A stretch of 64,000 nucleotides of DNA from Actinomycetes bacterium (GCA_021846845.1 JAJZWB010000001.1:1476-65475); one strand, 5' to 3'; shown: positions 7,784 to 38,461, counted from the stretch's first letter. A program made the numbers and translations. The notes: a model not told the origin generated them from the sequence alone.

Positions 7784-7787
<4 letters not shown>
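6747..7787 (-). CDS. ArsA/Get3-family ATPase-like protein (first of a pair)
   Basis: Distal 346 codons of ORF 6747..8330. The GTG at 7785-7787 overlaps the ppsA TGA (GTGA). Motifs are VKPAPHGRLLVIAGKGGVGRSTVAA, LVVLDAPASGE and VVVVATPEQMPVSE. The upstream part of the ORF overlaps ppsA and is rejected. Confidence 0.8.
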
Positions 7788-10194
<2,407 letters not shown>

Positions 10195-10198
<4 letters not shown>

Positions 10199-10935
10199 GG
10201 CCGATCGGCCGACCCGCCTGCCGGGCCGGCGCTCAGCTCGGCGTGGATCCGCGCGAGCTCGTCGTCGACGGCGCGGCCGGCGCCCAGCTGCTGAAGCTGG
10301 CGGTCGACCTCGTCCTGGGGCGGGCCCAGCGCGGTCAGGTCCTCAAGCGTGCCGGCAGCCTGGAGCTCTGACACGGCGTCGGCTCGGGCCCTCATGGTCT
10401 CGGCCTTGTCGACGGCTCGCTGCATCGCGAGGCCCACATCGGCCATGTCGTCGCCGATCCCGGTCGCGGCCTCGGAGATGCGGACCTCGGCCTCAGCGGC
10501 TGAGTACTGCGCCTTGATCACCTCCTTGCGGGAGCGGAACTGCTCGATCCTGGCGCGCAGCTGCCGTTCGGCCGCGGTCAGCCTCTCCTGCTCGGACTCA
10601 AGCTCGGCGACCTGCCGATCGAGCGAGCCTGTCTCCCCGACGATCAGCTGCCTTCGCTCGATCGCCGTGCGCGCGAGGTCCTCTCGCCCGGCGGCGACAG
10701 CCTCACGCGCCTCCCCGTCCAGCCGCTGGGCCTGGCGGCGCAGATCCGCCTCCTGGAGCGCCAGGCGCTTCTTGGAGGTGACCACCTCGGCGATCCCCTG
10801 CTTGACCCGCTGCAGATCCTCCAGCTGGCGCTCATATGCGTAGTCGAGCGTCTCGGCCGGTTCCTCGGCTCGGTTCAGCAGGCTGCTGATCTTCGCCTTG
10901 ACCAGCGTCGAGACGCGCCCAGTGAGTCCGGGCAT
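10195..10935 (-). CDS. pspA: PspA/IM30-family membrane stress protein
   Basis: Distal 246 codons of ORF 10195..11019, from ATG 10935. MPGLTGRVSTLVKAKISSLLNRAEEPAETLDYAYERQLEDLQRVKQ is followed by a long coiled coil typical of PspA/Vipp1. Its stop overlaps the ppsA ATG (ATGA at 10195-10198). Confidence 0.85.
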
Positions 10936-11046
10936 CAGATCCTCCTGTCTTCCTGGTCGGCGCTCGCCGTGGTCTGCGGGCGCCCGAGGCCCGCGGTTCT
11001 CGGCCGCCGCCGATGACAAGCTCGCTGTGGTTGACGGGCCACGACG

Positions 11047-11346
11047 CTAGTGCTGGGGACGGAGCCGTTCCATCTCTCGCCGCACCTCCTCCTCCGTGAT
11101 CGGGCGCCGTCCGTAGACGTCCCAGGCGTTGAGCACGACCCCGATCGCCCACAGCCCGGTCACCCAGGCAGGCCACGGATATCCGGCGCCGGTCACCGCC
11201 CAGACCCCCCACACGGCGGCGTTGACGACGACGTAGACGAACAGGTGCGCCCCGAAGTCGCGGCGCTTCTTGATGCGCTCCATGGCGGCGTCGCGCGCAG
11301 TCCGCTCCTCGCCGGGCGCGCCGTCCTCTCGCGGCTCGCTGCTCAT
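11047..11346 (-). CDS. 2TM-domain membrane protein
   Basis: Last 99 codons of ORF 11047..12267, from ATG 11346. KKRRDFGAHLFVYVVVNAAVWGVWAVTGAGYPWPAWVTGLWAIGVVLNAWDVY fits the 2TM domain pattern. The upstream 300 codons are Arg/Pro/Gly filler. Confidence 0.7.
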   Translation of the reverse strand: MSSEPREDGAPGEERTARDAAMERIKKRRDFGAHLFVYVVVNAAVWGVWAVTGAGYPWPAWVTGLWAIGVVLNAWDVYGRRPITEEEVRREMERLRPQH

Positions 11347-11791
11347 GACTGCAATCAACCAGCGGATGGGGCCGGGGCCATCGGGGGGATGCCGCGAGCC
11401 GGGACCGTGGGTTTCCGCCGACCCTCCCGTGCGGGTCGGCGGCGACGCCGCCGTCGGCGTTCCAGTGCTGCCCCCGTGCCGCCCGCCCCGTCCCCGTGCC
11501 GCCCGGTGCCGGCTGCTTCGTTGCGGTCTCCGTACTTTGCCGGCTTTCAGAGTGTGGCGGCCCCGCCCGCGCCTGTGGTGGGCGCCCGATGGCGGGTGCG
11601 TGATGCGGGCGGATGATCGGTGCACAAGGTCGCAGGGAGATCGCGCAATGGTCCAGACAACAGCCCCCAGCCCAGCCCGCGGCGAGCCGTCGCGCGCATG
11701 CGCGGGTGGCGGTTGCCACGGAGCGCACGTGCGGCGCCTGAGGCCGCCTCGTGTCCCCATCGGGAGCATGAGCACCTGGACGCGGATCCAG

Positions 11792-11824
11792 GGGCCCGGG
11801 CCCGACCTGGTCGGGCCCGGGCCC
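11792..11824. repeat. 33-nt perfect GC palindrome (15-nt arms, 3-nt centre)
   Basis: gggcccgggcccgac-ctg-gtcgggcccgggccc, lying inside the 790-bp non-coding gap. Confidence 0.9.
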
Positions 11825-12135
11825 ACTTCCTTCGCTTGCCAACCGCATCGCCGCCTGCCCGCCTCGCCGGGCGACGGGTCTGTCGAGCCGCGGTCCCGGT
11901 GCGCAGCGGGTTCATCGGGTGCAGGGTCGGTCGGCTTGCCGCTGCCCCGAGCGCCGGCTTGCCGCTGCCCCCACGTGTGACGCTGCGGTCCGCGGCGCGC
12001 GATGGTGCGATCCGCGGCGCGCGATGCTGAGGTCCGCTTCGCGCCGGCGGGATCCTTGTCGTCGCGGTTGGATCGAGCCGGGATGCGCTCGCCAGGCGCT
12101 CGCGAAGGCGGCCTGCCGGCCACAATCGTCAGGCG

Positions 12136-13329
12136 GTGCCCCGTCGAGACATCCAGGAGAGCGCCAACGGGCGGGCCGGGTCGGCGGCCGCAGGCCCCTC
12201 GCTGCAGATCGTGGCGCGCGAGTGGACACGGATCGGGATCACCGGCTTCGGTGGTCCGCCCGCCCACATCGCCCTGCTGCGCGCGCTGGTTGTCGACCGG
12301 ATGGGCTGGATGGGCGCGCGCGAGTTCCAGGACGCCAACGCGGCATGCGGGCTGCTGCCGGGGCCGGCATCGACTCAGCTGTCGATCTTCTGCGCCTACC
12401 GGGTCGCGGGCCCGGCCGGGGCGATCGTGGGCGGACTCGGCTTCATCATGCCGGCCGTCGTGCTGATCCTGGCGCTGTCGACGCTGTTCCTCGCCGGCTC
12501 GCCGCCGGTCTGGGTCCGCGGCGCGGGTGCGGGCGCGGGCGCGGCGGTCGCCGCGGTCGCCGCACAGGCCGCACGCGGGCTGATCGGTCCCAGCCTCTCG
12601 TCTGTCCGCGGCGACGCGCAGCGGACCGCCCGATGGGCGCTCTACCTCGTGACCGGTGGAGCGGCCGCGGCCCTGCTCGGCGGCTATCTCGTGCTCGCGC
12701 TCGTCATCTGCGGCGCGATCGAGGTGCTGGCCACGCGCCGTCCCGGGCTCCTGGGATCGCTTGCGGCGGCGGCGCCGGGCTCGCTGTCATTGGGCGGGGT
12801 CGGGGCGCTCGCCTGGACGGCGTTCAAGGTCGGGGCGCTGTCGTTCGGAGGGGGCTTCGTGATCATCCCCCTGATGCAGGGCGACGCGGTCCACACCTAC
12901 CACTGGATGACCGCCGGCCAGTTCCTCAACGCGGTCGCTCTGGGCCAGGTGACGCCGGGCCCCGTGGTCGCGACCGTGGCGGCCGTCGGCTATGCCGCGC
13001 ACGGGCTCGGTGGCGGCCTGCTCGCCGCGCTGATCGCGTTCGCTCCGTCCTTCTCGTTCATCCTGATCGCCGGCCGCCGGTTCGAGCGGTTGCGAGGCAA
13101 CCGTGACGCGCGCGCCTTCCTCGACGGTGCCGGTCCAGCCGCGATCGGCGCGATTCTCGGGGCCGCGATCCTGCTCGCCGGGGCGCTGCAGGAGACCTGG
13201 CAGTTCGTGCTGCTCACGGTTGCCGCGGTCGCGCTGCTGGCGTTGCGGCGCGGGATCGTGCAGACACTGATTGCCTGCGCTGCGGTCGGTGCGATCGCGG
13301 CGCTCGCCGGCGCGTCCCTGCCCAGCTGA
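12136..13329 (+). CDS. chrA: chromate efflux transporter
   Basis: ORF 12136..13329 (GTG start). It has two CHR halves: IGITGFGGPPAHIALLR...LPGPASTQL and FKVGALSFGGGFVIIPLM...GQVTPGPVVATV. Confidence 0.85.
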   Translation: MPRRDIQESANGRAGSAAAGPSLQIVAREWTRIGITGFGGPPAHIALLRALVVDRMGWMGAREFQDANAACGLLPGPASTQLSIFCAYRVAGPAGAIVGGLGFIMPAVVLILALSTLFLAGSPPVWVRGAGAGAGAAVAAVAAQAARGLIGPSLSSVRGDAQRTARWALYLVTGGAAAALLGGYLVLALVICGAIEVLATRRPGLLGSLAAAAPGSLSLGGVGALAWTAFKVGALSFGGGFVIIPLMQGDAVHTYHWMTAGQFLNAVALGQVTPGPVVATVAAVGYAAHGLGGGLLAALIAFAPSFSFILIAGRRFERLRGNRDARAFLDGAGPAAIGAILGAAILLAGALQETWQFVLLTVAAVALLALRRGIVQTLIACAAVGAIAALAGASLPS

Positions 13330-13550: not shown

Positions 13551-14261
13551 ATGACTCCTACAGACTCGATCGCCCGCTCCGGCCGGAGAAGTCTGGTCCG
13601 GGTCCTCGCCGGCGCTGCGGTCGCCTGCTCGTGCCTGCCCGCTGCGGCCTCGGCGTCGCCGGCGGTGAGGCGCTCGGCCGCCGGCGACGCGCTCGCGTCG
13701 GGCGTGCTGCTCCAGCGCGTGGACCTCGGCCGCGGGTGGAGCGCTGTCGGCGGCCAGCAGGTCGGCACGCTCACGTGCCCAGGCCTGCATGTCTCCCTCC
13801 GAGGGGTGACCGAGACGGGCGCCGCCGTCTCGCGGCGCTTCTCGCATGGAGCCAGCGGCCCGTTCGTGTCCCAGACGGCGTTCGTCTATGCCTCGCCTGC
13901 CGAGCAGGGTGAGGTCTGGGACCGAGTGATGACCCCCGGCTACAGCCGCTGCGCTGCCGCGAGCCTGCTCTCGGGGGCCACCGGGCGGGTGAGGTTCCAG
14001 GTCAGCCGGCGGCAGCGGCTATCGCTGCCGAGGGTGGCGGCTCGCCAGGCCGGCTACCGCGTGGTCGGAGATGCCATCGCGGGAAGCGTCACGATTCCCG
14101 TCTACCTGGACGTCGTCGCGCTCGGCGCAGGCCCGGTTCTCACCGAGATCTCGGTCTCCAGCTTCGACCAGCCGGTGAGCCGGAGGCTCGAGCTGAGCCT
14201 CGCTCGGGCAGTCGCCCGACGCCTGCATGCCCCGCTGCCGCGTCTGCGCGTCGGTGGCTGA
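13551..14261 (+). CDS. hypothetical exported protein
   Basis: ORF 13551..14261. The signal peptide is RRSLVRVLAGAAVACSCLPAAASA. GC3 bias is good. I recognise no family. Confidence 0.6.
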   Translation: MTPTDSIARSGRRSLVRVLAGAAVACSCLPAAASASPAVRRSAAGDALASGVLLQRVDLGRGWSAVGGQQVGTLTCPGLHVSLRGVTETGAAVSRRFSHGASGPFVSQTAFVYASPAEQGEVWDRVMTPGYSRCAAASLLSGATGRVRFQVSRRQRLSLPRVAARQAGYRVVGDAIAGSVTIPVYLDVVALGAGPVLTEISVSSFDQPVSRRLELSLARAVARRLHAPLPRLRVGG

Positions 14262-14361
14262 TGCTGCGCGGCTGCCCGCGGCTCCTGATGGTGCGCGGCT
14301 GCCCGCAGGGGCTGATCGAGCGGCCTGCGGTCAGGGGCCGATCGAGCGCGGCTGAGCCCCG
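14258..14361. repeat. 27-nt tandem repeat, about 4 copies, starting on the stop codon of the 13551 gene
   Basis: ctgatgctgcgcggctgcccgcggctc / ctgatggtgcgcggctgcccgcagggg / ctgatcgagcggcctgcggtcaggggc / cgatcgagcgcggctgagcc. TGA recurs in frame at 14259, 14286 and 14313. Confidence 0.9.
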
Positions 14362-14461: not shown

Positions 14462-17107
14462 ATGGGGTCGAGCAGGAAGCTCAGGGGACCGCTCGGCTGG
14501 CCGCGCTGGACGCTGGTCGTCCTGGCGCTCGCTTTCGCGTGCGCCAACGCCGCCACGGCGCGCGCCGCGCTGATCTGGGGCGGACCGATGGCGCAGGACC
14601 GCGCCGGAACAGGCGCTGCGCTCGTGGTGCTCGCCTGCCCGTCGGCGAGCGAATGCGTGGCGATCGACCAGGGCGGCGGCGAGGTCAGCTTCGCGCCTGG
14701 CTCTCCCGCGCCGTCCGCGCCGGTGAGCGTCGATCGCGCCTCGCCGGGTGCGCTCGTGTGCCTCTCCACCAGCTCCTGCATCGCCGTCGACGCGGCCGGC
14801 GACGAGGTCGCCTTCGACCCGGCTGCGCCCGCGACGGCTCAGACGACCGCGATCGACCCGGGTAAGTCGCTGATCGCACTCAGCTGCACGCCCGACGGCT
14901 CGCTGTGCGTTGCGCTGGACACCTCGGGCAACGCTGTGACGTTCGCGCCCAGCGCGCCCGGCGCCGCGAAGGTCAAGCAGCCACAGTCGGGCCAGCTGTT
15001 CGACGCCGTCGCCTGCCTGTCCGATACCCAATGCCTGATCGCAGGGCTGTCGGGCGACTACGTGACCCTTGATCCCGCCACACAGTCGATCACGGGGGAG
15101 GCGACGATCGACGGGCAGACCCCGCTCACGGCGATCGCCTGCCCGTCCAGCAGCCAATGCGTGGCGTTCGACACCAACGGCAACGAGCTCACGATCCAGC
15201 TGGGCGCAGGCGCCGGCTACCAGATCCTCCATCTGGACCCGGGGAACCTGATCACGGCTGCCAGCTGCCCCTCTAGCTCGCTGTGCGTCGCCCTGGACGC
15301 GATCGGAGGCGTGGTGATCTTCGCTCCCGGGCAGACCGGCACGCGGACGCAGCTGCCGGCCGGTGGGGGCATCGATGCGCTCGCGTGTGCCAGCGCGTCG
15401 GCGTGCGCCGCCGTCGACGGTCGGGGGCAGGCGATCGCGCTGGACCCGGCATCCGTCGGGACTCCGGCCGTTGCCCTGGTCGACGCCCTGCCCAACTACT
15501 CCGACATCGCCTGCGCGGCCGCGACGGAGTGCACCGCCATGGACACCGGCGGCGACGAGGTCAGCTTCGACCCCCGCAGCGGTCAGCCGCTCTCCGCCGC
15601 CCAGGTCGATGCGGGCGGGCAGGGTGTGGCCGGCATGGCCTGCCCCGCCGCCGGCCAGTGCACCGTGGCAGACATCGACGGCGAGGCGCTCACGTTCGAT
15701 CCCCAGACCGGCAATTCGGTCGCGCCCGCGATCGTCGATCAGAACCATGCTCTCCTGGCGCTGAGCTGCCCGGCTGTGGGTCAGTGCACCGCCGCGGACT
15801 CCGGCGGCTACGAGCTCACGTTCGATCCGCAGACGGCGGCCGTGGTCGGCCAGGCGGCGCTCGGGCTCGCGGGCGGAGCAAAGGTGGTCTCGCTGTCATG
15901 CCCGGCGACGACCGAGTGCGCGGCGCTCGACTCGGTCGGTGAGGTCGTCGTCTTCAACCCGCTCTCGCCAGCGCATCCGGCCGTCGCCCAGCTGCCGATG
16001 ACGGCCGGCGCTGAGCTCGCGTGCCCCACCTCCGGGGAGTGCGTTGCCCTCAGCGTTTCGGGCCGCCGCTTCACGTTCGCGCCGGCGGACCCCGGCGCGG
16101 CCTCAGACGAGCCGCTCGCCGCGACCGCGCCGCTGGGCCTCTCATGTCCGATCGCCAGCTACTGCGTGCTGCTGGACGCGGCCGGCCAGGCGGTCGAGTT
16201 CGACCCTCACGGCACCGGCGCGACGGCCGTCACGACTCCGCCCTCCGGGTCGGCGGCGCCGACCGCGATCTCGTGCCCGTCCAACTCGCTGTGCGTGGTC
16301 AGCGACTCGACGGGGGCGGCGTTGCTGGGGGGAGCCGTGCTCCCGCCGCTCCCGGCCGTGCTGGCAGATCCGAGGATCTCGGGGCGCGCGCTGCCGGGAC
16401 TCGCCCTGCGCGCGTCGCTCGGCAGCTGGACCGCGGGTCCGACCTCGGTGCAGGCGCAATGGGAGCGCTGCGATCGCGCCGGGGGTCGGTGCAGCGCGAT
16501 CCCCGGTGCCAACGCGACGACCTACCGGGTGACCGCCGCGGATTCCGGACACCGCCTGCGGATCGTGGCCCTGGCCGCCAACCAGGCGGGTGCCGGGCCG
16601 TCTGCGCTGTCGGCGCCGACGGCTGTCATCAGGGCGCGTCCGGTGCCGCTGGCACTGATCGCCACGTCGCTGTCGGGGGTTGCCGCGGGCCGTCCGCTGC
16701 TGAGTCTTGGGATCCGGGTCTGGTCCCGTGAGCCCGCGCCGCGCGAGTTCACGGTGCTGCTGCCGGGCGGGCTGCGGCTGACGGCGAGAGGCCTCCGCGC
16801 CCGGCGCGCGATCCTGGTGCGCTCGGGCCGCCGACGGCTGGATGCCACCGCGCGTGCTGCGCGTCCGACGGTGGCGGTGGTGGCGCTGCGCCGGTCCTCG
16901 CGCGATCTGAGCCTGACGCTCTCCGGTCCGGCGCTGGCGGCGTCGGCGGCCCTGCGCACGCTGGCCCGAAGGCATCCCGGGGAGCTGGTGACGGTGGTCG
17001 TGCTGGCGCGTGCGGCGGGTCGACGGACGCTGCGCGCGAGCGTGCGCCTGCGAATCGGCGGACCGGTCCGATCGAGATCCAAATCCAGGCGCATCGCGAC
17101 GCCGTGA
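14462..17107 (+). CDS. exported repeat protein: 14 x ~42-aa Cys-pair repeats, an Ig-like W..RC..C module and a basic C-terminal domain
   Basis: ORF 14462..17107. The signal peptide is WTLVVLALAFACANAATARA. Repeats follow the pattern LACPSASECVAIDQGGGEVSF, LSCPAVGQCTAADSGGYELTF and so on. The first Cys of each unit falls at aa 59,100,142,185,227,269,309,351,393,436,480,521,562,605. The following module is GSWTAGPTSVQAQWERCDRAGGRCSAIPGANATTYRVTAADSGHRLRIVALAANQAG. Confidence 0.8.
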   Translation: MGSSRKLRGPLGWPRWTLVVLALAFACANAATARAALIWGGPMAQDRAGTGAALVVLACPSASECVAIDQGGGEVSFAPGSPAPSAPVSVDRASPGALVCLSTSSCIAVDAAGDEVAFDPAAPATAQTTAIDPGKSLIALSCTPDGSLCVALDTSGNAVTFAPSAPGAAKVKQPQSGQLFDAVACLSDTQCLIAGLSGDYVTLDPATQSITGEATIDGQTPLTAIACPSSSQCVAFDTNGNELTIQLGAGAGYQILHLDPGNLITAASCPSSSLCVALDAIGGVVIFAPGQTGTRTQLPAGGGIDALACASASACAAVDGRGQAIALDPASVGTPAVALVDALPNYSDIACAAATECTAMDTGGDEVSFDPRSGQPLSAAQVDAGGQGVAGMACPAAGQCTVADIDGEALTFDPQTGNSVAPAIVDQNHALLALSCPAVGQCTAADSGGYELTFDPQTAAVVGQAALGLAGGAKVVSLSCPATTECAALDSVGEVVVFNPLSPAHPAVAQLPMTAGAELACPTSGECVALSVSGRRFTFAPADPGAASDEPLAATAPLGLSCPIASYCVLLDAAGQAVEFDPHGTGATAVTTPPSGSAAPTAISCPSNSLCVVSDSTGAALLGGAVLPPLPAVLADPRISGRALPGLALRASLGSWTAGPTSVQAQWERCDRAGGRCSAIPGANATTYRVTAADSGHRLRIVALAANQAGAGPSALSAPTAVIRARPVPLALIATSLSGVAAGRPLLSLGIRVWSREPAPREFTVLLPGGLRLTARGLRARRAILVRSGRRRLDATARAARPTVAVVALRRSSRDLSLTLSGPALAASAALRTLARRHPGELVTVVVLARAAGRRTLRASVRLRIGGPVRSRSKSRRIATP

Positions 17108-18540
17108 GACCTTTCATGGCAGCATTGGCTCTCGTGTGGCGGCCACGGATCACCTCGGCGCGTTTCGCGCTGGCCGTGTGCGCGTCGATCCTCATGGCGC
17201 TGCTCGGTTCGGCGTCGGCCTCGGCCGCGATCGCGACCCCGTTCTCGCCCCCGGGACTCCCCGCGTCGCCCTTCTCGACCTGGTGGTTGCCGGACCCCGC
17301 GGGCGCACAGTGGCAGTACGACTGGAGCGACACCTTCTACAACCCTGCTCCCGGGACGGTGGAGAACGTCACCGTCCAGAGCGCCAGCGGCAGCTCGTTC
17401 GTGCTCGCGTGGCAGAACGTTCCGCCGGCGGGAGGTCAGGTGACCGATGCCGGGACGGTCTCCTTCCAGGACACGGACCTCGGGATCGTGAACACCAACT
17501 GGGCGAGCACGCCGCCGCTGGCCGGCGAGCCGATCCTCTGCGCCACGACGAGCCAGTGCGCCAACAGCCTCGCGAGCGCCTACTACAACGTGATCTGGGG
17601 CGCGCGTGACCCGGTCCTGCCGGAGCCGCTGCTGCAGGGGACTTCGTGGAGCGCAACCGGCGGCGCTCAGAACGATGTCGCGAGCGTCAACACCTACCTG
17701 GGCGAACGGTATGTCAGCGTGCCCGCGTTCCCCCGCCCGGTGCAGGCGGCCGTGATCCGCTCGGACATCAGCCAGGCGGGGGCGCTCGGCGATCCCTACG
17801 GCAGCGGCGAGCGCACCACCTGGTGGGTCTACGGGGTCGGACCGGTGAAGGTCGTTTTCGATCACGCGGGCGGCGCCCTGGCGCCGGTCACGACCGTGGA
17901 GCTTCAATCGACGTCCCTCAAGCCGCTCCCGCCACCCCCGGACGCGAGCTACCTTCCGCTCAAGCAGGGGATGACCGGCCTGTACCGGTTGACCAACAGC
18001 CGCTATCTGCGCACGCCGGAGGTGGAGCGGGTGACGGTCGCAAAGGTCCAGAACGCGAGCGCGGAGCTGACCGCCACGAGCGTCTCGGGCCCGATGCGCG
18101 TCAGGGGCGCGTACGTGCTCACCACCCGCCTCGCCGAGGGCATCAGCAACATCCAGGGGTCGACGTCCGCGGCGACGCTGCTCAAGTTCCCGCCTCTCGG
18201 GCACGACCTGCACTTCTTCACTCCCCTGGATCTGATGACCTACGGCTTCAACCCGATCCTGCCGGCCTACCCGCTGGCCGGGGACTCGTGGAGGAGCGGC
18301 AACGCACGGGACCTGCACGTTTACGGCGTCAGGGGCAGCACCACGATCATCGGCGTGCGCCGGGTGAGCGTCCCCGCGGGGAGGTTCCGGGCGCTGGAGG
18401 TGCGCAGCGTGCTCGCGCAGCGCGGCCACCCATTCGGCAGCGGCGTGCGGCTGATGTGGTTCGCGCCCGGCCGAGGGCTGGTCAAGCTCGTCTTTCGCCA
18501 GCGCGACCGCAGCGTGACCCAGGTCGAGCTGATCAGGTAG
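17104..18540 (+). CDS. hypothetical exported protein with internal domain duplication
   Basis: ORF 17104..18540. Its GTG overlaps the upstream TGA (GTGA). The signal peptide is ILMALLGSASASAA. Two halves end in similar strands, WWVYGVGPVKVVFDHAGGALAPVTTVELQS and MWFAPGRGLVKLVFRQRDRSVTQVELIR. Confidence 0.7.
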   Translation: MRPFMAALALVWRPRITSARFALAVCASILMALLGSASASAAIATPFSPPGLPASPFSTWWLPDPAGAQWQYDWSDTFYNPAPGTVENVTVQSASGSSFVLAWQNVPPAGGQVTDAGTVSFQDTDLGIVNTNWASTPPLAGEPILCATTSQCANSLASAYYNVIWGARDPVLPEPLLQGTSWSATGGAQNDVASVNTYLGERYVSVPAFPRPVQAAVIRSDISQAGALGDPYGSGERTTWWVYGVGPVKVVFDHAGGALAPVTTVELQSTSLKPLPPPPDASYLPLKQGMTGLYRLTNSRYLRTPEVERVTVAKVQNASAELTATSVSGPMRVRGAYVLTTRLAEGISNIQGSTSAATLLKFPPLGHDLHFFTPLDLMTYGFNPILPAYPLAGDSWRSGNARDLHVYGVRGSTTIIGVRRVSVPAGRFRALEVRSVLAQRGHPFGSGVRLMWFAPGRGLVKLVFRQRDRSVTQVELIR

Positions 18541-18542
18541 AG

Positions 18543-19388
18543 GTGGGCGCGAGGGCAAAGCGCCGGGCGGCCGCCGTGTCGCTCGTGCTCGTCACGCTCG
18601 TCGCTGCCGGATGCGGATCGAGCAGCGGCTCAGGGCGGGCGGCGCTCGCCCGATACATGGTCCGGGCGGAGCGGATCGAGCTGCAGATGAAGGCGCCGGT
18701 GGCGGCGGTGACCGCAGTTGGGCTCCGGGTCTCGGCGGCCGGTGGGCTGAGACCGTCGCCGGCACTGCAGCGCCGGCTGTCGACCGCGCTGGCCGGGCTC
18801 CGGGCATCGCAGCGCGGCCTCGCGGCGCTTCCAGCCCCGCGGTCGGCGCAGAAGCTGCGCTCGACCGCCCTGCGGCTGGACGATGAGCAGATCATGCTGA
18901 CGCGCGAGCTGTCGCAGATGATCGGCTACCCGGCCAGGTTCCAGGCCGCGATCCGGCCGCTGCACGGCGCTGTGCAGACGCTCTCAGCTGCGCTCGCGCA
19001 GCGTGCCGGCCCCAGCGTGGCCACGATCTATTCGGCGCGTGCCGCGGCGCTGGAGGCGTTCACAAAGGTGGTCGATCGAATCGCGGCCCGCCTGCGGTCG
19101 CTCACGGTGCCATCCGTGTTCCTCCCCGGCTACAGGGCCGAGCTCTCCGCGCTGACCCGGATGGGATCCGCGGCCGCCGGGCTGGCCGGCGCGATGCGGC
19201 GCGGCGGTGCCGGCGGCGCCGCACCGCTGAGGTCGCTTCAGCGCGCGTTCCTGCTCGGCACCAGCGGCGCGGTCCGCCGCTCCGAGATCGCGGCGGTGCG
19301 CGCCTACGACCTCCAGCTTCAGGACCTGACCACGCTCGCCGCCCGGCTGCAGCAGGAGCGCCTGCAGCTCTCTGCGAGCGTCAGCTGA
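18543..19388 (+). CDS. hypothetical lipoprotein (Ala/Leu/Arg-rich, helical)
   Basis: In-frame GTG at 18543 within ORF 17646..19388, 2 nt after the upstream stop. The lipobox is VTLVAAGCGSSSG. The earlier part of the ORF overlaps the 17104 gene. Confidence 0.65.
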   Translation: MGARAKRRAAAVSLVLVTLVAAGCGSSSGSGRAALARYMVRAERIELQMKAPVAAVTAVGLRVSAAGGLRPSPALQRRLSTALAGLRASQRGLAALPAPRSAQKLRSTALRLDDEQIMLTRELSQMIGYPARFQAAIRPLHGAVQTLSAALAQRAGPSVATIYSARAAALEAFTKVVDRIAARLRSLTVPSVFLPGYRAELSALTRMGSAAAGLAGAMRRGGAGGAAPLRSLQRAFLLGTSGAVRRSEIAAVRAYDLQLQDLTTLAARLQQERLQLSASVS

Positions 19389-19559: not shown

Positions 19560-20741
19560 ATGCCTCGATCGGCTGGGTCAATCGGGCGCCGATCGGCGCT
19601 CGTTCTCGCCCTTCTGCTCGCTCTGTCGGGCTGCGGCGCGGCCGCAGCTGTGGCGACCGCGGGTCAGTCCCCGTCAACGCCGCCAAAGACTGGGTCGCCG
19701 TCCACCACCGCCTCCACGACCACCACGCCTGCTGCACCGGGCTCGACGGCGTCGCCGTCCAAGCCCGCGGCTCCGCTGAGGGTGATGTGGTGGCGTCCGC
19801 GGTCGCGCGCAGGCGGCATCCAGCCGATCGTGATCCACTTCTCGCAGCCGCTGAGCGCGCGCGCGGTGCACGACCTCAGCCTGTCTCCGTCCGTGCCGGG
19901 CTCCTGGGCCCTGTCGTCGCCGAGCACTCTGCGATTCGTGCCGACGGGCGCCTTCGCGCCGTTCTCGACGGTCAGGGTGACGGTGCAGCGAGCTGTAGCC
20001 TCCGTCGCCGGTGCCCACCTGCGCCGGCCGGTGACGTTCAGGTTCTCGGTCGGCGCGCCGGCGCCGGCGCGCCTCGTGCAGCTTCTGGCCAGGCAGGGCT
20101 ACCTGCCGCTCCGCTTCCGTGCCAGGGGCAGGCAGTTCAACACCCGTGCGGCCGACCAGATCGCGCTGTTCGATCCTCCCTCGGGCAGGCTCCTGTTCGA
20201 CCCGGGCTGGCCGGCGGCGCTCCACGTTCTCTGGGCCCACAACAGCGCCGTGATGATCCGCGGTGCCGTGATGGCGTTCGAGGCGGCGAATGGCCTCACG
20301 ATGGACGGGGTCGCCGGGCCCTCGGTGTGGAGCGCGCTGGAGCGCGCCCAGGAGGCCGGTCGGCGCTCCCCGGTCGGCTACTCGTACGCGATCGCCAGCG
20401 AGTCGAGCCCCGAGACGCTGACGGTCTGGCACGCCGGTCACGTGGTCGTGCGATCGCTGGCGAACACCGGGGTTCCCGGTGCGCCGACGGCGCTCGGGAC
20501 CTACCCGGTGTACGAGCGCCTTCGCAACCAGGTGATGCAGGGCACCAACCTGAACGGAACGCATTACGCCGACCCGGTGTCGTGGGTCGCCTACTTCAAC
20601 GGCGGCGATGCGGTCCACTACTTCCCGAGGGCGTCGTTCGGCTTCCCGCAGAGCCTCGGGTGCGTCGAGCTGCCGTGGGCGCCCGCCGAGCGCGCCTGGG
20701 GCTACCTGACCTACGGCACGCTCGTCACGGTCGTTCCGTAG
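19560..20741 (+). CDS. L,D-transpeptidase family lipoprotein
   Basis: ORF 19560..20741. The lipobox is LLLALSGCG. A PG-binding-like segment GLTMDGVAGPSVWSAL is present. The YkuD catalytic region is HYFPRASFGFPQSLGCVELP. Confidence 0.8.
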   Translation: MPRSAGSIGRRSALVLALLLALSGCGAAAAVATAGQSPSTPPKTGSPSTTASTTTTPAAPGSTASPSKPAAPLRVMWWRPRSRAGGIQPIVIHFSQPLSARAVHDLSLSPSVPGSWALSSPSTLRFVPTGAFAPFSTVRVTVQRAVASVAGAHLRRPVTFRFSVGAPAPARLVQLLARQGYLPLRFRARGRQFNTRAADQIALFDPPSGRLLFDPGWPAALHVLWAHNSAVMIRGAVMAFEAANGLTMDGVAGPSVWSALERAQEAGRRSPVGYSYAIASESSPETLTVWHAGHVVVRSLANTGVPGAPTALGTYPVYERLRNQVMQGTNLNGTHYADPVSWVAYFNGGDAVHYFPRASFGFPQSLGCVELPWAPAERAWGYLTYGTLVTVVP

Positions 20742-20783
20742 CGCGCGCCCGGGGGGCGCCGTAGTGCGCGCCCGGGCGGCGGC
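20738..20783. repeat. 23-nt tandem duplication including the ldt stop codon
   Basis: gtagcgcgcgcccggggggcgcc / gtagtgcgcgcccgggcggcggc. Confidence 0.85.
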
Positions 20784-20794
20784 CGCCGGCCGCC

Positions 20795-20929
20795 TGCAGT
20801 GCGCCGCGTGCGGCCTGCGGTTCTGCAACCGGCCACCGGGCGTGCAACGCGCCGCGGGCGGCCTCCGGCCCTGCAACGCGCCGCGGGCGGCCTCCGGTCC
20901 TGCAACGCGCCGCGGGCGGCCTCCGGTCC
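20795..20929. repeat. 29-nt tandem repeat: 3 near-identical copies plus 2 degenerate ones, upstream of murB
   Basis: The tgcaacgcgccgcgggcggcctccgg(c/t)cc unit starts at 20843, 20872 and 20901. Degenerate copies start at 20795 and 20824. Confidence 0.9.
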
Positions 20930-20955
20930 CCGCGGGTCTCGGCTACGCTCGCGCT

Positions 20956-22110
20956 GTGTCCGAGCCGCCGCATCGAGGGCCCGGCCCGGAGGGGGAGAGG
21001 TCCGGCGTACCGCTCTCGCAGATGACGACGCTGCGGATCGGAGGGCCCGCGCGACGGCTCGTCGACGCGACGTCCGATGCGGAGGTCGTCGATACGATCG
21101 CGGCCGCCGACGCCGCCGGCGAGCCTGTGCTGGTGATCGGCGGCGGCTCGAACCTGGTCGTGTCCGATGCCGGGTTCGAGGGAACGGTCGTCCGCGTGGC
21201 CACGCGCGGCATCCGCACGCGCGGCATCATCGCGGGCGCGGCGAGCCGGGGAGGCGCCGGGAGCACGGCGCCGGAGCGGGTGCGGCTGGAGGTCGCGGCC
21301 GGCGAGCCCTGGGACGGCCTGGTCGCGCGCACGGTCACCGATCGACTGGCCGGGATCGAGTGTCTTTCCGGGATCCCGGGCCTGGCGGGCGCGACACCGA
21401 TCCAGAACGTCGGCGCCTACGGCCAGCAGATCGCCGACACGATCGTCTCGGTGCGCGCCTACGATCGCCGCGAGCGCCGGGTCGTGGAGCTGCCGGCCGA
21501 GCGGTGCGGCTTCGCGTATCGCGCCAGCGCCTTCCGCCGCTGCGATCGCCATGTGCTGCTCGGCGTCACGCTTGAGCTGGAGCGGTCGCCGTTCGCGTGT
21601 CCTCTGCGCTACGCCGAGCTGGCCCGCGCGCTGGAGGCGCGGCCGGGCGCCCGCCCGCCGCTTGAGCTGGTGCGGGAGGCAGTGCTGAGCCTGCGCCGCG
21701 GCAAGGGGATGGTGGTCGACCCGGACGACCCCGACTCGGTCAGCGCCGGCTCGTTCTTCATCAACCCGGTCCTCGGGGCGACCGCTTTCGAGGCTCTGCG
21801 AAGGCGGGCGCGCGATCGCTCCAGCGGCACGACGCAGGCGGGCGAGCGAGCGGGGCCGCCGGCTTGGCCGGAGGCCGACGGCGCCGTCAAGACCTCGGCG
21901 GCATGGCTGATAGAGCGAGCCGGGTTTCACCGCGGTCTCACCGACGGGCGGGTCGGAATCTCCGGCAAGCACACGCTCGCGCTGGTCAACAGGGGAGGTG
22001 CGACGGCAGCCGAGCTGCTCGCCCTGGCGCGGCGGATCCGGGCCGGCGTCCGGGAGGCGTTCGGCGTCACGCTGCGCCCGGAGCCGACGCTGGTCGGCGT
22101 GGAGCTCTAG
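20956..22110 (+). CDS. murB: UDP-N-acetylenolpyruvoylglucosamine reductase
   Basis: In-frame GTG at 20956 of ORF 20764..22110; the upstream codons lie in the tandem repeat. Motifs are TTLRIGGPA, VIGGGSNLVVSD, GIPGLAGATPIQNVGAYG, KTSAAWLIERAGF and GISGKHTLALVN. Confidence 0.9.
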   Translation: MSEPPHRGPGPEGERSGVPLSQMTTLRIGGPARRLVDATSDAEVVDTIAAADAAGEPVLVIGGGSNLVVSDAGFEGTVVRVATRGIRTRGIIAGAASRGGAGSTAPERVRLEVAAGEPWDGLVARTVTDRLAGIECLSGIPGLAGATPIQNVGAYGQQIADTIVSVRAYDRRERRVVELPAERCGFAYRASAFRRCDRHVLLGVTLELERSPFACPLRYAELARALEARPGARPPLELVREAVLSLRRGKGMVVDPDDPDSVSAGSFFINPVLGATAFEALRRRARDRSSGTTQAGERAGPPAWPEADGAVKTSAAWLIERAGFHRGLTDGRVGISGKHTLALVNRGGATAAELLALARRIRAGVREAFGVTLRPEPTLVGVEL

Positions 22111-28561: not shown

Positions 28562-29217
28562 CGGTCCCTCTCAGGACGCGCGTCCTGCTGGTCGACGACC
28601 ACGCGGTGGTGCGAAGCGGGCTGCGGATGGTCCTCGACTCCGAGCCTGACATCGAGGTCGTCGCCGAGGCCGGCGACGGCGCCGAGGCGGTCGCGCTGGC
28701 GCTGCGCTCAGATGTCGACCTGGTGGTGCTCGACGTCTCGATGCCGCGCATGACCGGCCTGCAGGCGGTCGCCGAGCTGCACCGCCGGCGCCCGGCGATG
28801 CGGCTGCTGATCCTCTCGATGCACGACAACGAGCAGTACTTCTTCGAGGCTCTGAAGGCCGGAGCCTCGGGCTACGTGCTCAAGGCGGCAGCCAACCGGG
28901 AGCTGATCGAGGCGATCCGCGCGGCGATGCGCGGCGAGCCGTTCATCTACCCGGCCGCGCTCGCGGCGCTGCTGCGCGACCACATCGAGCGTGCGTCTCG
29001 TGGTGAGGAGCCGCCCGCCAATCCCCTCAGCCCTCGCGAGCAGCAGGTCGTCAAGCTGATCGCCGAGGGCCACTCGGCCGATGAGATCGCGCAGGTCCTG
29101 TGCATCAGCCCTAAGACGGTCGAGCGCCATCGCGGCAACATCCTGGACAAGCTCGGGATGCGCAACCGCGTGCAGCTCACCCGCTACGCGATCCGCGCCG
29201 GGCTCGTCGAGCCCTGA
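28558..29217 (+). CDS. NarL/LuxR-family response regulator
   Basis: ORF 28558..29217. Its GTG overlaps the kinase stop. Motifs are VLLVDDHAVVRSG, VLDVSMPRMTG and the LuxR HTH SPREQQVVKLIAEGHSADEIAQVLCISPKTVERH. Confidence 0.92.
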   Translation: MTVPLRTRVLLVDDHAVVRSGLRMVLDSEPDIEVVAEAGDGAEAVALALRSDVDLVVLDVSMPRMTGLQAVAELHRRRPAMRLLILSMHDNEQYFFEALKAGASGYVLKAAANRELIEAIRAAMRGEPFIYPAALAALLRDHIERASRGEEPPANPLSPREQQVVKLIAEGHSADEIAQVLCISPKTVERHRGNILDKLGMRNRVQLTRYAIRAGLVEP

Positions 29218-29313
29218 TCCGCGCCGCGCTCCCGAGCCCTGATCCGCACTGGGCTCCCGAGCCCCGGGGGCGCCGAATCGCGCCCCGCCGCAAGATCCGC
29301 GAAGCTTCCCGTC

Positions 29314-29775
29314 ATGCAAGACGTGGCGATGTTCCTCCACCTGCTCGGCGCCCTGCTGTTCGCGGCCGGGATCGTGCTCGTCGGGACCGTGTTCGAGGCG
29401 GCCCGCCGGCGGACGCGGGCTTCGGAGGTTGCGCTGCTGCTCGGCCTCGCGCGCGTGGCGGTGCCGATCGTGGGGCTGGGGGCGCTGCTGGCCGGCGTGT
29501 TCGGCCTCTGGCTCGTGCACCTCGGCCACTGGGGCTATGGCTCCGGCTGGGTCGACGCGGCGATCGTGCTGTACCTGGTTGCGCTTGCGCTCGGGGCCGT
29601 CGGTGGTCGTCGGCCGAGGCAGGCGCGGCTGCTGGCCGCCGAGCTGGCCGGCCGGGACGAGCCGATCAGTGACGAGCTGCGGGCGCTGCTCGACGACCCC
29701 GTCTCGCTCGCGGCCAACTACGTGTCGGGGGTGGTCGTGCTCGCGATCGTCGTGCTGATGGTGTTCAAGCCCTGA
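29314..29775 (+). CDS. DUF2269-like four-TM membrane protein
   Basis: ORF 29314..29775. It has four hydrophobic segments and the start MFLHLLGALLFAAGIV. The family assignment is from memory only. Confidence 0.55.
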   Translation: MQDVAMFLHLLGALLFAAGIVLVGTVFEAARRRTRASEVALLLGLARVAVPIVGLGALLAGVFGLWLVHLGHWGYGSGWVDAAIVLYLVALALGAVGGRRPRQARLLAAELAGRDEPISDELRALLDDPVSLAANYVSGVVVLAIVVLMVFKP

Positions 29776-29886
29776 GCGCCGGTGCCCTCGGCGGCGCGCC
29801 GCGGGGCGTGCCGGCGGTTGCGGCCCCGGGCGGCTGTAGGATTGCGCTGGATCACGGAGACAGGAGGTCTCGGAGATGGAGCGAGC

Positions 29887-30147
29887 ATGAGCCTCGAGTT
29901 GCTGGACGCACGCGAGACGGCCGAGGGGATCGAGGTCACCTTCGCAACGGAGCGTGGGCTGGAGACGCTTGAGGGCAGCTGCGAGGAGATCGCGCGCCTG
30001 TCTCGGGTGATGGCGCAGGTGGCGGCGCTGGCGGCCGTCAACGAGGACGAGCGAGTGTGGATCGACAGGGTCGAGGTCGGCGATGCGGTCGTCCATCTGG
30101 GGCTCAAGCCCGGCGGACAGGCGAAGGTGCGGATCGTCCGCCGCTGA
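29887..30147 (+). CDS. hypothetical small protein (86 aa)
   Basis: Internal ATG at 29887 of ORF 29782..30147, preceded by ggagatggag. The product is acidic and soluble-looking. I recognise no family. Confidence 0.45.
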   Translation: MSLELLDARETAEGIEVTFATERGLETLEGSCEEIARLSRVMAQVAALAAVNEDERVWIDRVEVGDAVVHLGLKPGGQAKVRIVRR

Positions 30148-30159
30148 GCGCAGGGGGCG

Positions 30160-30283
30160 TCCGGTCACAGAGGCGAGCGTGGCCCCGGCGCCTTCGGAGC
30201 CTGGCCCCGGGCCCTGGGGATTCCGGTCACAGAGGCGAGCGTGGCCCCGGGCCCATCGGAGCGCGGCCCCGGGCGCCTCGGCG
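30160..30283. repeat. 62-nt tandem repeat x2 between the small ORF and the MTHFR-like gene
   Basis: tccggtcacagaggcgagcgtggccccgg... occurs at 30160 and again at 30222. The tails are more diverged. Confidence 0.85.
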
Positions 30284-30321
30284 CGTGGCCGCCCCGCGCG
30301 GTCGCGGATCGGAGCGACGGC

Positions 30322-31200
30322 GTGACCCAACCGGCCACGGCCCCCGCCGACACGACGGCTCGCTTCGAGGTGATGCCGCTCGGACGCTCCGACGCCGAGG
30401 CGGCGCGGCTGCCGGAGCCGGTGCGCCTGACGATCACCTGCTCGCCCAGGCACGGTCCCGACCACTCGGTCGGCTTCGGCGCCCGGATGCGGGAGCTCGG
30501 CCATGCGGTGACGGTGCACGTAGCGGCGCGGATGGTCCGGGACCGCGGGCACGTCGACGCGCTCCTTGCCGCGATGTCGAGCGCCGGGATCGACGACGTG
30601 CTGCTCGTGGGCGGTGATGCCGCTGCGCCGCTTGGCGCCTACGCGTCGGCCGTCGAGCTGCTGCCCGCGATCGCCGGGCACCCGCGCCGACCGGCGAGGA
30701 TCGGGATCGCCGGCTACCCGGAGGGCCACCCGCTGGTCCGGGAGCGGGAGCTCGAGCGCGCGCTGCTGCAGAAGAGCGGGCTGGCGGACTACGTGGTCAC
30801 TCAGATGTGCTTCGACCCGGTCACGCTGCGCGGCTGGATCGGTCGGGCTCGCGAGCTCGGAATCATGCTGCCGGTGCTGATCGGGGTGCCCGGCCAGGTC
30901 GCCGTCACGCGCCTGCTGGAGATGTCCGCGCGGATCGGCGTCGGCGCGTCGATGGCGTTCCTGCGCAAGCAGCGCGGGCTGGTCGGGATCGTCAGCCGCT
31001 CGGCGCCGGACCGCCTCTACGACGCTCTGGCGCCCGAGATCGGCGGCCCGCTCGGGGTCGCCGGGTTTCACTACTTCACGCTGAACCGGCTGGCGGCGAC
31101 CGTGGAGTGGCACCGAGCCAGGCGCCGGAGCGACGCGACCGTGGGACCCTCCGGGCCCGGCGAGGCGAGCGCTCCGAACCGGGAGGCGGACGGGGTCTGA
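30322..31200 (+). CDS. methylenetetrahydrofolate reductase family protein
   Basis: GTG at 30322 (after ggagcgacggc) within ORF 30241..31200. Motifs are FEVMPLG, VLLVGGD, IGIAGYPEGHP, VVTQMCFD, PVLIGVPG and GFHYFTLNR. Confidence 0.75.
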   Translation: MTQPATAPADTTARFEVMPLGRSDAEAARLPEPVRLTITCSPRHGPDHSVGFGARMRELGHAVTVHVAARMVRDRGHVDALLAAMSSAGIDDVLLVGGDAAAPLGAYASAVELLPAIAGHPRRPARIGIAGYPEGHPLVRERELERALLQKSGLADYVVTQMCFDPVTLRGWIGRARELGIMLPVLIGVPGQVAVTRLLEMSARIGVGASMAFLRKQRGLVGIVSRSAPDRLYDALAPEIGGPLGVAGFHYFTLNRLAATVEWHRARRRSDATVGPSGPGEASAPNREADGV

Positions 31201-31201
31201 G

Positions 31202-31230
31202 CGCCCGCCGGCACGCGGGGCCGGCGGGCG
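31202..31230 (+). terminator. GC hairpin (11-bp stem, 7-nt loop) 1 nt after the MTHFR-like stop
   Basis: cgcccgccggc-acgcggg-gccggcgggcg. There is no U-tract, which is common in high-GC genomes. Confidence 0.5.
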
Positions 31231-31317
31231 GAGGGGAAACTTGTGCAAGAGGCACAGGAATCTCAGGGTTCGATCTGCTCCGGACGCAAGAAAATGGGTG
31301 TGGCGACGTGAGAACCT

Positions 31318-32211
31318 TTGATCGTGACTCGGCTTGAGCGCACAGCCAACCTGATCGGCGTGGTGGTGCCGTTCGTGGGCGTCCTGGTCGCCGTGGCGAT
31401 GCTCTGGAGGCGCGCGGTGGACGCGACCGACCTGGCCGTGGCGGCGGTCATGTACCTGCTCACCGCGGCCGGCGTGACGGTCGGCTTCCACCGGCTGCTG
31501 ACGCATCGGGCGTTCGTGAGCCACGCCTGGGTCGAGCGGACGTTCGCGGTGCTCGGCTCGCTCTCGGTCCAGGGCTCGGTGCTCGACTGGGTCGCCGACC
31601 ACCGCAAGCACCACGCGCACACCGATCGCGAGGGCGATCCGCACAGCCCCCACGTCGGCCACGGAAGCGGGCTCGCGGGCCTGTGGCACGCGCACGTGGG
31701 GTGGCTGCTGGAGAGCCAGGGGCAGGCCGACTGGCGCCGCTACGCGCCCGACCTCTACGAGGACCGGGCGATGCGCGCCATCGGGCGCCAGTTCCCGCTG
31801 CTGGCGCTGCTATCGCTGCTGGTGCCGGCGGCCGTCGATTGCGCCCTGCACGGCTTCACCGCCGCCGGTGCCCTGCGCGGGCTGGTGTGGGGCGGCCTGG
31901 TGCGGATCTTCTTCGTGCACCACGTGACCTGGTCGGTCAACTCGGTGTGCCATTTCTTCGGCAGCCGGCGCTTCGACGTCGAGGACCGCTCGACCAACGT
32001 CGGCTGGCTTGCGCTGCTGTCGCTGGGCGAGTCATGGCACCACAACCACCATGCCTTCCCTCGCTCTGCCTTCCACGGACTCAGGTGGTGGGAGGTCGAC
32101 CTCTCGGGTCTGATCATCTCGGGAATGGAGCGCGTGGGGCTGGCGTGGAACGTGGTCCGGATCGCGCCTGAGCGCCAGCGCTCCAGACTCGCGGTCGAGC
32201 CGGTTCGCTGA
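31318..32211 (+). CDS. acyl-CoA (stearoyl-CoA type) fatty acid desaturase
   Basis: ORF 31318..32211 (TTG start; alternative GTG at 31324). It carries the three His boxes HRLLTHRAF, HRKHHAHTD and HNHHAFP. Confidence 0.9.
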   Translation: MIVTRLERTANLIGVVVPFVGVLVAVAMLWRRAVDATDLAVAAVMYLLTAAGVTVGFHRLLTHRAFVSHAWVERTFAVLGSLSVQGSVLDWVADHRKHHAHTDREGDPHSPHVGHGSGLAGLWHAHVGWLLESQGQADWRRYAPDLYEDRAMRAIGRQFPLLALLSLLVPAAVDCALHGFTAAGALRGLVWGGLVRIFFVHHVTWSVNSVCHFFGSRRFDVEDRSTNVGWLALLSLGESWHHNHHAFPRSAFHGLRWWEVDLSGLIISGMERVGLAWNVVRIAPERQRSRLAVEPVR

Positions 32212-34215: not shown

Positions 34216-34220
34216 TGCGC

Positions 34221-34946: not shown

Positions 34947-34964
34947 GCGCGCACGCCCGATCTC

Positions 34965-35054
34965 GGCATTGCGGCATTGTCCACGGCGACCGGCTTCGGC
35001 ATGGCGGCATTCTCCACGGCGACCGGCGTCGGCATCGCGGCATTCTCTCCGGTC
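34965..35054. repeat. 33-nt tandem repeat x2.7 in the divergent gap upstream of rpmG
   Basis: ggcattgcggcattgtccacggcgaccggcttc / ggcatggcggcattctccacggcgaccggcgtc / ggcatcgcggcattctctccggtc. Confidence 0.9.
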
Positions 35055-38452: not shown

Positions 38453-38461
38453 GGAGGAACG

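Follow-up and report, generated by a model that had tools for sequence, protein, structure and literature searches.

A predicted double β-propeller with a cysteine pair in every blade in an exported protein of soil actinobacteria

What might an exported protein do when its greater part is a short repeat with a pair of cysteines in every copy? Such a protein is encoded in a 64,000-nucleotide (nt) stretch of DNA from an Actinomycetes bacterium (GCA_021846845.1 JAJZWB010000001.1:1476-65475), which we call the window; positions are counted from its first letter. A first-pass annotation of this DNA had described the product of the gene at 14462-17107, hereafter the repeat protein, as an exported binding scaffold made of 14 tandem units of ~42 amino acids (aa). 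The analyses reported here identify the repeat protein as an unmodelled variant of a known fold, belonging to a large uncharacterised soil-actinobacterial family. They support well a predicted head of two tandem seven-bladed β-propeller rings, and they make a role as a secreted binding scaffold plausible.

The window has a G+C content of ~73%, and long spurious open reading frames (ORFs) are therefore common in it. For the repeat gene this possibility is ruled out by the G+C content at third codon positions (GC3; 0.88 vs 0.68–0.69 for the overlapping antisense ORFs) and by the existence of homologues; the 881-aa ORF described earlier is present, and its translation agrees. The product begins with a Sec-type signal peptide (all features are collected in Table 1), in which the A33-R34-A35 site predicts cleavage before A36. 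The strongest hydrophobic window of the protein lies at aa 18–38, and the AlphaFold2 (AF2) model has a helix at aa 15–27 with a low predicted local distance difference test (pLDDT) score. Conservation was judged by aligning the window protein and 19 homologues (30–58% identity); A35 and L37 are nearly invariant in this set. C27, inside the signal peptide, is not conserved and has no lipobox, which rules out a lipoprotein anchored through this residue. We looked for an LPXTG-like motif, a lipobox and a transmembrane segment and found none in the repeat protein, the signal peptide being its only strongly hydrophobic segment. In the model, a strand at aa 38–45 precedes the first blade; its W39 and P42 are invariant in the alignment, and it may be the closing strand, the inferred ‘velcro’, of a propeller.

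The array itself comprises, as first described, 14 tandem units of ~42 aa, each with a C-x5(6)-C pair. Successive units are spaced 40–44 aa apart, and the second cysteine follows the first after five residues, or six in unit 3; the earlier list of first-cysteine positions was right except for 393, which should read 394 (Table 1). The protein has 31 cysteines: 28 in the 14 unit pairs, one in the signal peptide and two at 670/677 (C-x6-C). Against the 15 C-x5/6-C pairs observed, 20,000 shuffles of the sequence gave 2.05 on average and 10 at most, and a leave-one-out profile built from 13 units recognises each remaining unit at 22–46 bits. The T-F-D-P motif of the fourth strand is missing from blade 14. 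A search of the rest of the 64-kb window for this repeat gave no further copy.

Homologues of the whole repeat protein number 159 in a word-indexed search of 5.8 billion proteins (best, 58% and 55% identity), and those from named sources are mostly from metagenome-assembled genomes (MAGs) of Solirubrobacteraceae; taken with the G+C content, they suggest that the window comes from Thermoleophilia (Actinomycetota). The paired cysteines could have proved dispensable in orthologues; instead, all 28 are invariant down to 30% identity, together with C670/C677, W39, P42 and, in the T-F-D-P motif, F and P at many positions. Orthologues can be matched blade for blade, which indicates that the array is ancient. 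We also considered an origin of the double propeller from a duplicated seven-blade unit and rejected it, as the value for blades i and i+7 (36.0%) is not in excess of the 35–40% at other offsets. The invariant residues of the head (C, G, F, P and D) are all blade-motif positions and no blade-specific polar residue is conserved, which speaks against a catalytic site and favours a scaffold with variable binding surfaces.

The suggestion that a 42-aa period and 14 copies mean two seven-bladed rings was borne out by structure prediction followed by Foldseek, the route that the first-pass annotation had proposed. The AF2 model, made from the alignment, is all-β (mean pLDDT, 85.4; predicted template-modelling score (pTM), 0.61), with four strands per 42-aa unit as assigned by DSSP. 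The top 50 Foldseek matches in the PDB are all tandem 7+7-bladed propellers (expect value (E) ~1e-21, ~630–650 aligned columns), among them AIP1/WDR1, Utp21, Pwp2 and axonemal WD proteins, with identities of 9–14% and a target-normalised template-modelling (TM) score of up to 0.67 (AIP1). Rings of seven are also indicated, independently of the model, by the family itself: blades matched per protein among the best 150 members peak at 14 (75 proteins), 7 (15) and 21 (4), and free-standing seven-blade members occur (for example, P0332, 370 aa). We regard two tandem seven-bladed β-propeller rings as a well-supported prediction for the head.

Both cysteines of each pair sit, in the AF2 model, on blade strands 1 and 2, either side of a tight turn. 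Among 2,905 blades in 235 family members, 2,882 have both cysteines, 22 are gapped at one position and one has a single cysteine, a count that is partly circular in that the blade profile rewards cysteine; the pair spacing is x5 in 2,761 blades (96%). Of 232 members, 214 (92%) have an even number of cysteines after the signal peptide. Actinobacteria oxidise exported cysteines (PMC12421883), and the secreted, non-catalytic, sialidase-fold propeller CyRPA of Plasmodium has five sequential disulfides, each stabilising one blade (PMC5349852). Invariant pairs, even cysteine counts, a signal peptide, the oxidation of exported cysteines and the CyRPA precedent together strongly suggest one intrablade disulfide per blade in the repeat protein.

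How far the blade extends beyond this protein was visible from a 42-position profile of the 14 window blades, which the first-pass annotation had suggested building and which was searched exhaustively against 1.84 billion cluster representatives (clusters at 50% identity). It matched 7,817 representatives at E ≤ 1e-3, 3,916 at E ≤ 1e-10 and 962 at E ≤ 1e-30. The repeats start at ~aa 51, directly after the signal peptide, in 223 of 234 members, and are followed by a C-terminal flank with a median length of 221 aa. C-terminal partners are overwhelmingly immunoglobulin (Ig)-like: IG_AIR9 (20 of 44 long members at E ≤ 1e-4) and SCAB-Ig (17 of 44) are joined by Big_3_5, TIG, Big_13, Fn3, I-set and PKD, with PASTA, InlB B-repeats and CBM_5_12 as rare partners. 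In a few members an N-terminal GH27 α-galactosidase or GH18-like domain is followed by exactly seven blades.

The earlier failure to assign the repeat to a named family still holds. Pfam (2025 copy) and NCBIfam, searched at E ≤ 1, gave nothing for the repeat beyond spurious sub-threshold matches, a PDB sequence search with the whole repeat protein gave no match, and no description of the repeat was found in the literature. The window protein matches neither the Tectonin (PF19193) nor the Tachylectin (PF14517) profile. A WD40 signature was likewise missing from it: there is no WD dipeptide, only one GH and no WD40 (PF00400) match at E ≤ 1.

A possible ancestry comes from a more distant relative. 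The Asp-box S-x-D-x-G-x-T-W (BNR, PF02012) is lacking from the window protein in strict or loose form, and the motif [ST]-[FL]-[DNA]-P occupies the equivalent junction of strands 3 and 4 in 11 of its blades. P0119, a family member that is only distantly related to the window protein (E = 3e-31), combines the hairpin I-S-C-P-S-x-x-x-C-x-A-V-D with T-D-G-G-S-T-W Asp-boxes, and matches PSII_BNR (Ycf48, PF14870) at 37.1 bits (threshold, 27) over residues 396–541, where its Cys-pair blades span 383–536. The blade looks, from these sequence motifs, like a divergent and unmodelled offshoot of BNR/Asp-box (Ycf48-type) propellers that has lost the Asp-box and belongs to no current family.

The array is followed by two further domains. 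The module noted earlier as G-x-W...QW-x-RC...C...TY...D-x-G...LR occupies aa 632–712 and is very probably an A9-type Ig-like domain with its own conserved cysteine pair, of which the window copy is sub-threshold: against IG_AIR9 (PF23197) it scores 14.4 bits vs a cut-off of 27.5 (E = 0.034, aa 641–702), and the aligned module in paralogues reaches 119–129 bits with IG_AIR9 or SCAB-Ig (PF16709). The best E values are found in P0243 (8.8e-35 for IG_AIR9 and 7.1e-38 for SCAB-Ig). Modelled alone, aa 714–865 form a β-sandwich with two short helices (pLDDT, 85.8; pTM, 0.77). Foldseek relates this domain to the integrin αIIb stalk, Thermus TTHA1873, ACE, ClfA/B, FnBPA, Als adhesins and pilin BcpA, matches that are generic Ig-like sandwiches (E from 2e-5 to 1e-3; TM score, 0.4–0.5); a search of its profile against PDB sequences gave a chance-level match to eS7 only.

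The C-terminal part is also strongly charged. The Arg-rich C terminus seen earlier proved to hold 33 Arg in the 164 residues from aa 718 to the end (net charge, +29; isoelectric point (pI), ~12), of which aa 866–881 are specific to the window protein and missing from orthologues. In all 20 aligned proteins the double propeller is acidic (net charge, −22 to −66; pI ~4.1), and the last ~145 aa carry +15 to +35 with a pI of 12 in 18 of the 20, the exceptions being P0040 (+15, pI 11.5) and P0035 (+9, pI 9.8). The tail of P0034 has lysine in place of arginine (R9, K20), which indicates that the charge, rather than a GC-rich supply of Arg codons, is under selection. In the wider family, 98% of heads are acidic, and a basic character extends to 91% of the C-terminal tails, those with no recognisable copy of the domain included. 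On most carriers the basic domain ends 0–8 residues from the C terminus, with 7, 10–14 or ~20 blades before it.

We think that the repeat protein is probably a Sec-exported, disulfide-hardened and non-enzymatic binding head that lies outside the cell and is held at the anionic envelope by a basic tail, which would be its putative function. The head would consist of acidic tandem seven-bladed propellers in which the C-P-S-x-x-x-C pair of each blade most likely forms an intrablade disulfide, for a total of 14 in the head with one more in the Ig domain. Carried on the Ig-like stalk, this head would act as a binding module, its ligand possibly being a glycan or another envelope or matrix polymer, perhaps bound in a lectin-like way. 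The basic C-terminal sandwich would hold the protein electrostatically and non-covalently on the anionic cell envelope; non-covalent anchoring is proposed because the protein has no transmembrane segment, LPXTG motif or lipobox. The disulfides, surface location, tail anchoring and binding function are what we infer from the repeat, its conservation, the predicted fold and the charge split between head and tail. A broader extension strikes us as rather doubtful: that the ~7,800 clusters form an Actinomycetota-specific family of BNR-derived propellers with a disulfide per blade, whose basic sandwich is a general envelope anchor or a head-to-tail self-assembly element in Thermoleophilia. If true, it would amount to a new surface-display or S-layer-like system in abundant, almost unstudied soil bacteria.

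Table 1. Coordinates of the repeat-protein gene, its parts and the neighbouring genes.
Feature	Position (nt)	Strand	Basis
Whole repeat-protein gene, 881 aa plus stop	14462..17107	+	ORF list, translation, GC3, homologues
Sec-type signal peptide, aa 1-35	14462..14566	+	basic n-region, hydrophobic core aa 16-31; read from sequence
N-terminal strand with invariant W39-x-x-P42 motif (L-x-W-x-G-P-x-x-x-D)	14567..14614	+	alignment, AF2
Propeller 1, blades 1-7, aa 52-343	14615..15490	+	Cys pairs 59/65, 100/106, 142/149, 185/191, 227/233, 269/275, 309/315
Propeller 2, blades 8-14, aa 344-629	15491..16348	+	Cys pairs 351/357, 394/400, 436/442, 480/486, 521/527, 562/568, 605/611
Ig-like domain, A9/SCAB-Ig type (probable), aa 632-712, pair C670/C677	16355..16597	+	paralogue profile matches; all-β in model
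Basic C-terminal β-sandwich (predicted), aa 714-865	16601..17056	+	AF2 of domain alone, Foldseek, charge
Disordered basic tail (predicted), aa 866-881, GGPVRSRSKSRRIATP	17057..17104	+	pLDDT <50 at aa 868-881
g0, 236-aa exported protein, no Pfam match	13551..14261	+	GC3 0.86
g2, 478-aa exported protein (474 aa from ATG 17116)	17104..18540	+	GC3 0.91, homologues
g3, lipoprotein of ~283 aa, lipobox LVAAGC, start approximate	~18537..19388	+	GC3 frame switch ~18540, translation
Phosphoenolpyruvate (PEP)-utilising enzyme, PPDK_N domain (PEP synthase/PPDK type)	7784-10198	-	GC3, Pfam
PspA	10195-11019	-	GC3, Pfam
Two-transmembrane (2TM) protein	11047-12267	-	GC3, Pfam
ChrA, chromate transporter, two genes upstream of repeat gene	12136-13329	+	GC3, Pfam
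YkuD L,D-transpeptidase lipoprotein (PG_binding_1, Big_5 domains), directly downstream of g3	19560-20741	+	GC3, Pfam
MurB	20764-22110	+	GC3, Pfam

The repeat gene lies between g0 and g2, and the next gene is g3. The two downstream genes had been noted as possibly constant companions, which is so in the closest orthologues only: the order repeat gene–g2–g3 is kept in L001, L002 and L006, which include the two closest orthologues, with g2 at 74–77% identity, a gap of 31–35 nt between repeat gene and g2, and g3 homologues following g2 at 46–50% identity. In the more distant loci of P0004 and P0011 (39–41% identity), a g0-like gene comes after the repeat gene, then a gene for a protein of 1,087–1,288 aa (in L003, a paralogue with the same repeat) and a giant gene. 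The neighbourhood of P0021 has the giant gene only, and that of P0028 has neither g0, g2, g3 nor a giant gene. Conversely, g0, g2 and g3 are adjacent without a repeat gene in a Gaiellaceae MAG (L005, 3693-7954), where the g3 homologue has 32% identity and a second g2 paralogue stands in divergent orientation. L005 is the only locus that came from a genome-contig scan anchored on g2; the scan with the repeat protein alone gave no relatives. The propeller gene is therefore an optional neighbour of a more widespread exported-protein module. PADLOC, run on the four genes, returned no match.

Within the window, the repeat gene and g2 are operonic whichever start g2 uses. The translational coupling through a GTGA noted earlier is less certain: the overlap is present in the sequence, and the database copy of g2 (P0121, 474 aa) starts at the ATG at 17116. 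Homologues of g2 number more than 1,700 at ~60% identity, in Solirubrobacteraceae and Gaiellaceae, all labelled hypothetical. No Pfam or NCBIfam model matches g2, and a PDB profile search gives only a marginal match to an Srr-1 adhesin region (E = 0.005). It has an invariant C146-x5-C152 pair (17539-17559) within P-I-L-C-A-x-x-S-x-C-A-N-S-L, which resembles the C-P-S-x-x-x-C hairpin of the blades; as a conserved core protein, g2 may be more important than the propeller itself. Homologues of g0 (30–36% identity) adjoin repeat-protein genes in L003/L004 and L007 and adjoin g2 in L005, which loosely links g0 to the repeat family. Between g0 and the repeat gene, at 14258-14348, a ~27-nt unit (CTGATG.TGCGCGGCTGCCCGC.G / ...GGGGC.GATCGAGCG) occurs three to four times in tandem, and there is a short inverted repeat at 14299-14334; a regulatory role, or one akin to that of a terminator, is possible.

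Further features of the surroundings are recorded here as observations. A functional link to the L,D-transpeptidase and MurB was considered and dropped, as these are not neighbours in any other locus. Giant genes stand just downstream of repeat homologues in L003 (15711-18607; 10,955 aa), L007 (12891-14604; 3,200 aa) and L009 (3349-9046; 9,394 aa), and their products, with an N-terminal membrane anchor, then long Thr/Ala/Pro/Ser-rich low complexity and almost no cysteine, are probably giant surface proteins; nothing comparable was seen in the window. Sulfur-metabolism genes flank the two closest orthologues (L001, 4030-7545 and 12968-18571; L006, 718-5923): both have LysR regulator and rhodanese genes, L006 adds a lactamase_B–rhodanese fusion and Pyr_redox_2, and L001 has genes for sulfite reductase, PAPS reductase, a YgaP-like membrane protein and a class-V aminotransferase. 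Such genes do not surround the repeat gene in the window. The window contains rpoB (40679-44347) and rpoC (44485-48636), identified with Pfam, and is thus core chromosome; the region 34000-48700 has a lower G+C content (0.67–0.70) and a positive AT skew, and a 995-aa ORF at 28708-31695 on the minus strand has no Pfam match at E ≤ 1e-5.

Several points weigh against the binding head on a basic tail as we propose it, and against the BNR ancestry. Glycan binding draws on few fusions (2 GH27 and 1 CBM among 44), and the cross-matches of two distant family members to the Tectonin and Tachylectin profiles are marginal (P0109, 30.8 bits vs 30; P0114, 26 vs 29.8). The homologues of the repeat protein are all labelled ‘hypothetical protein’. 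The neighbourhood gives no functional clue, because it is not conserved beyond the closest orthologues. The link to BNR propellers depends on one bridging sequence, P0119, because neither an Asp-box nor a PSII_BNR match at E ≤ 1 is present in the window protein. To these may be added the partial circularity of the paired-cysteine count and the generic character of the structural matches of the tail domain.

The same charge split could serve self-assembly instead, in a surface-layer or matrix protein whose acidic heads bind the basic tails of their neighbours head to tail, forming a lattice or fibre. Gram-positive bacteria do have S-layer proteins that are acidic and carry a basic wall-binding domain (Lactobacillus SlpA is one), and the family-wide conservation of an extreme split between head and tail fits such a design, as do the absence of a covalent anchor motif in the repeat protein, the presence of several paralogues per genome (two on one contig in L003, with L007 a candidate; P0006 and P0024 may share a contig) and the giant membrane-anchored Thr/Ala/Pro/Ser-rich proteins (3,200–10,955 aa) encoded in some loci. 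However, blade number and tail domains vary across the family, which would be unusual for a lattice protein, and the glycosidase fusions fit a binding module better, so that we hold self-assembly to be unlikely. We also find it improbable that the repeat protein is a subunit of an envelope complex with the exported g0, g2 and g3, its propellers acting as a docking platform. The genes are tightly packed on one strand in the window (depending on its start, g2 overlaps the repeat gene at a GTGA or follows it after 8 nt, and g3 overlaps g2), the gene order is shared with three orthologous loci in which g2 is well conserved, and in L003, L004 and L007 the gene immediately following the repeat gene is g0-like. 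Yet word-indexed searches give more than 1,700 homologues for g2 and 159 for the full-length repeat protein, the Gaiellaceae MAG keeps g0–g2–g3 together without the repeat gene, P0028 and P0021 lack all three neighbours, and the gap between repeat gene and g2 is 31–35 nt in the orthologous loci.

Two readings of the head as chemically active are disfavoured, given the lack of conserved catalytic residues on the one hand, and the export signal and hairpin placement of the pairs on the other. A propeller hydrolase, comparable to sialidases or to GH74 xyloglucanases, which have two seven-bladed propellers and Asp-boxes, would fit the fold class and the remote BNR/Ycf48 link, as would the fusion of some members to GH27 or GH18-like domains. 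But the catalytic domain of those GH27 fusions is N-terminal and separate, and the seven blades occupy the usual position of a binding module; moreover, no blade-specific acidic, His or Ser residue is conserved, the invariant positions all belonging to the structural blade motif, and the window protein has neither an Asp-box nor a glycoside-hydrolase Pfam match at E ≤ 1, which makes an enzyme very unlikely. The 14 cysteine pairs could alternatively be functional thiols (redox-active, persulfide-carrying or soft-metal-binding dithiols) rather than structural disulfides, a possibility to which we give hardly any weight. The extreme conservation of vicinal C-x5-C pairs would suit it, as would the sulfur-metabolism genes beside the closest orthologues (rhodanese, with sulfite and PAPS reductase downstream in L001 only) and the chromate transporter gene upstream in the window. 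Against it stand export into an oxidising compartment, the position of the pairs on adjacent hairpin strands in every blade, as expected of cross-strand disulfides, the Ig domain's own conserved pair, typical of structural disulfides, and the absence of the sulfur-gene context from the window and other loci.

Read as a binding head, the repeat protein overturns no current view; its fold is ordinary and it is not a new kind of system. Its interest lies in the size and setting of the family. Thermoleophilia (Solirubrobacterales and Gaiellales) are among the most abundant soil actinobacteria, and to our knowledge almost nothing has been described of their cell surface. The family is large, often with several paralogues per genome, and a domain definition would annotate thousands of ‘hypothetical proteins’. 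A clean bacterial propeller with a disulfide in each blade, as predicted here, could be of use in protein engineering as a highly stable scaffold, and the design of acidic head and basic tail is a directly testable hypothesis of envelope attachment.

Among known systems, the best structural matches are AIP1/WDR1 (1nr0, 1pgu and 9qfq), Utp21 (4nsx) and Pwp2 (5i2t), which, like the repeat protein, have 14 four-stranded blades of ~42 aa arranged 7+7. These are eukaryotic cytosolic WD40 proteins without disulfides, signal peptide or Ig-like stalk, and the resemblance is one of fold only. Ycf48-type BNR propellers are bacterial and seven-bladed and share the ~42-aa period and the layout of hydrophobic strand, hairpin and ‘A-V-[DG]-x-x-G’; the window protein differs in having T-F-D-P for the Asp-box, an invariant cysteine pair in every blade and a doubled ring, and any homology is remote. 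Propeller lectins (the Photorhabdus PLL family, tachylectin and tectonin) are secreted multi-blade proteins with a binding site per blade or blade interface, PLL3 being one with seven blades (PMC6943638). Some members of the repeat family are fused to glycosidases or a carbohydrate-binding module; no sugar-binding motif came to light in the window protein, and a lectin role is conceivable as a hypothesis only. In overall plan, with a propeller or binding head on an Ig-like or β-sandwich stalk, the repeat protein resembles the integrin α ectodomain and the MSCRAMM-type adhesins of Gram-positive bacteria; unlike them, it has no FG-GAP or Ca-binding repeats, transmembrane helix or LPXTG motif, the TM scores of its C-terminal domain to theirs are 0.4–0.5, and its extreme positive tail charge is not a feature of their domains. 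CyRPA has six blades, one of them without a disulfide, comes from a eukaryotic parasite and shows no detected sequence relationship; as a secreted, non-catalytic propeller with disulfide-stapled blades that serves as a protein-binding platform (PMC5349852), it is an analogue in design of what we propose for the repeat protein.

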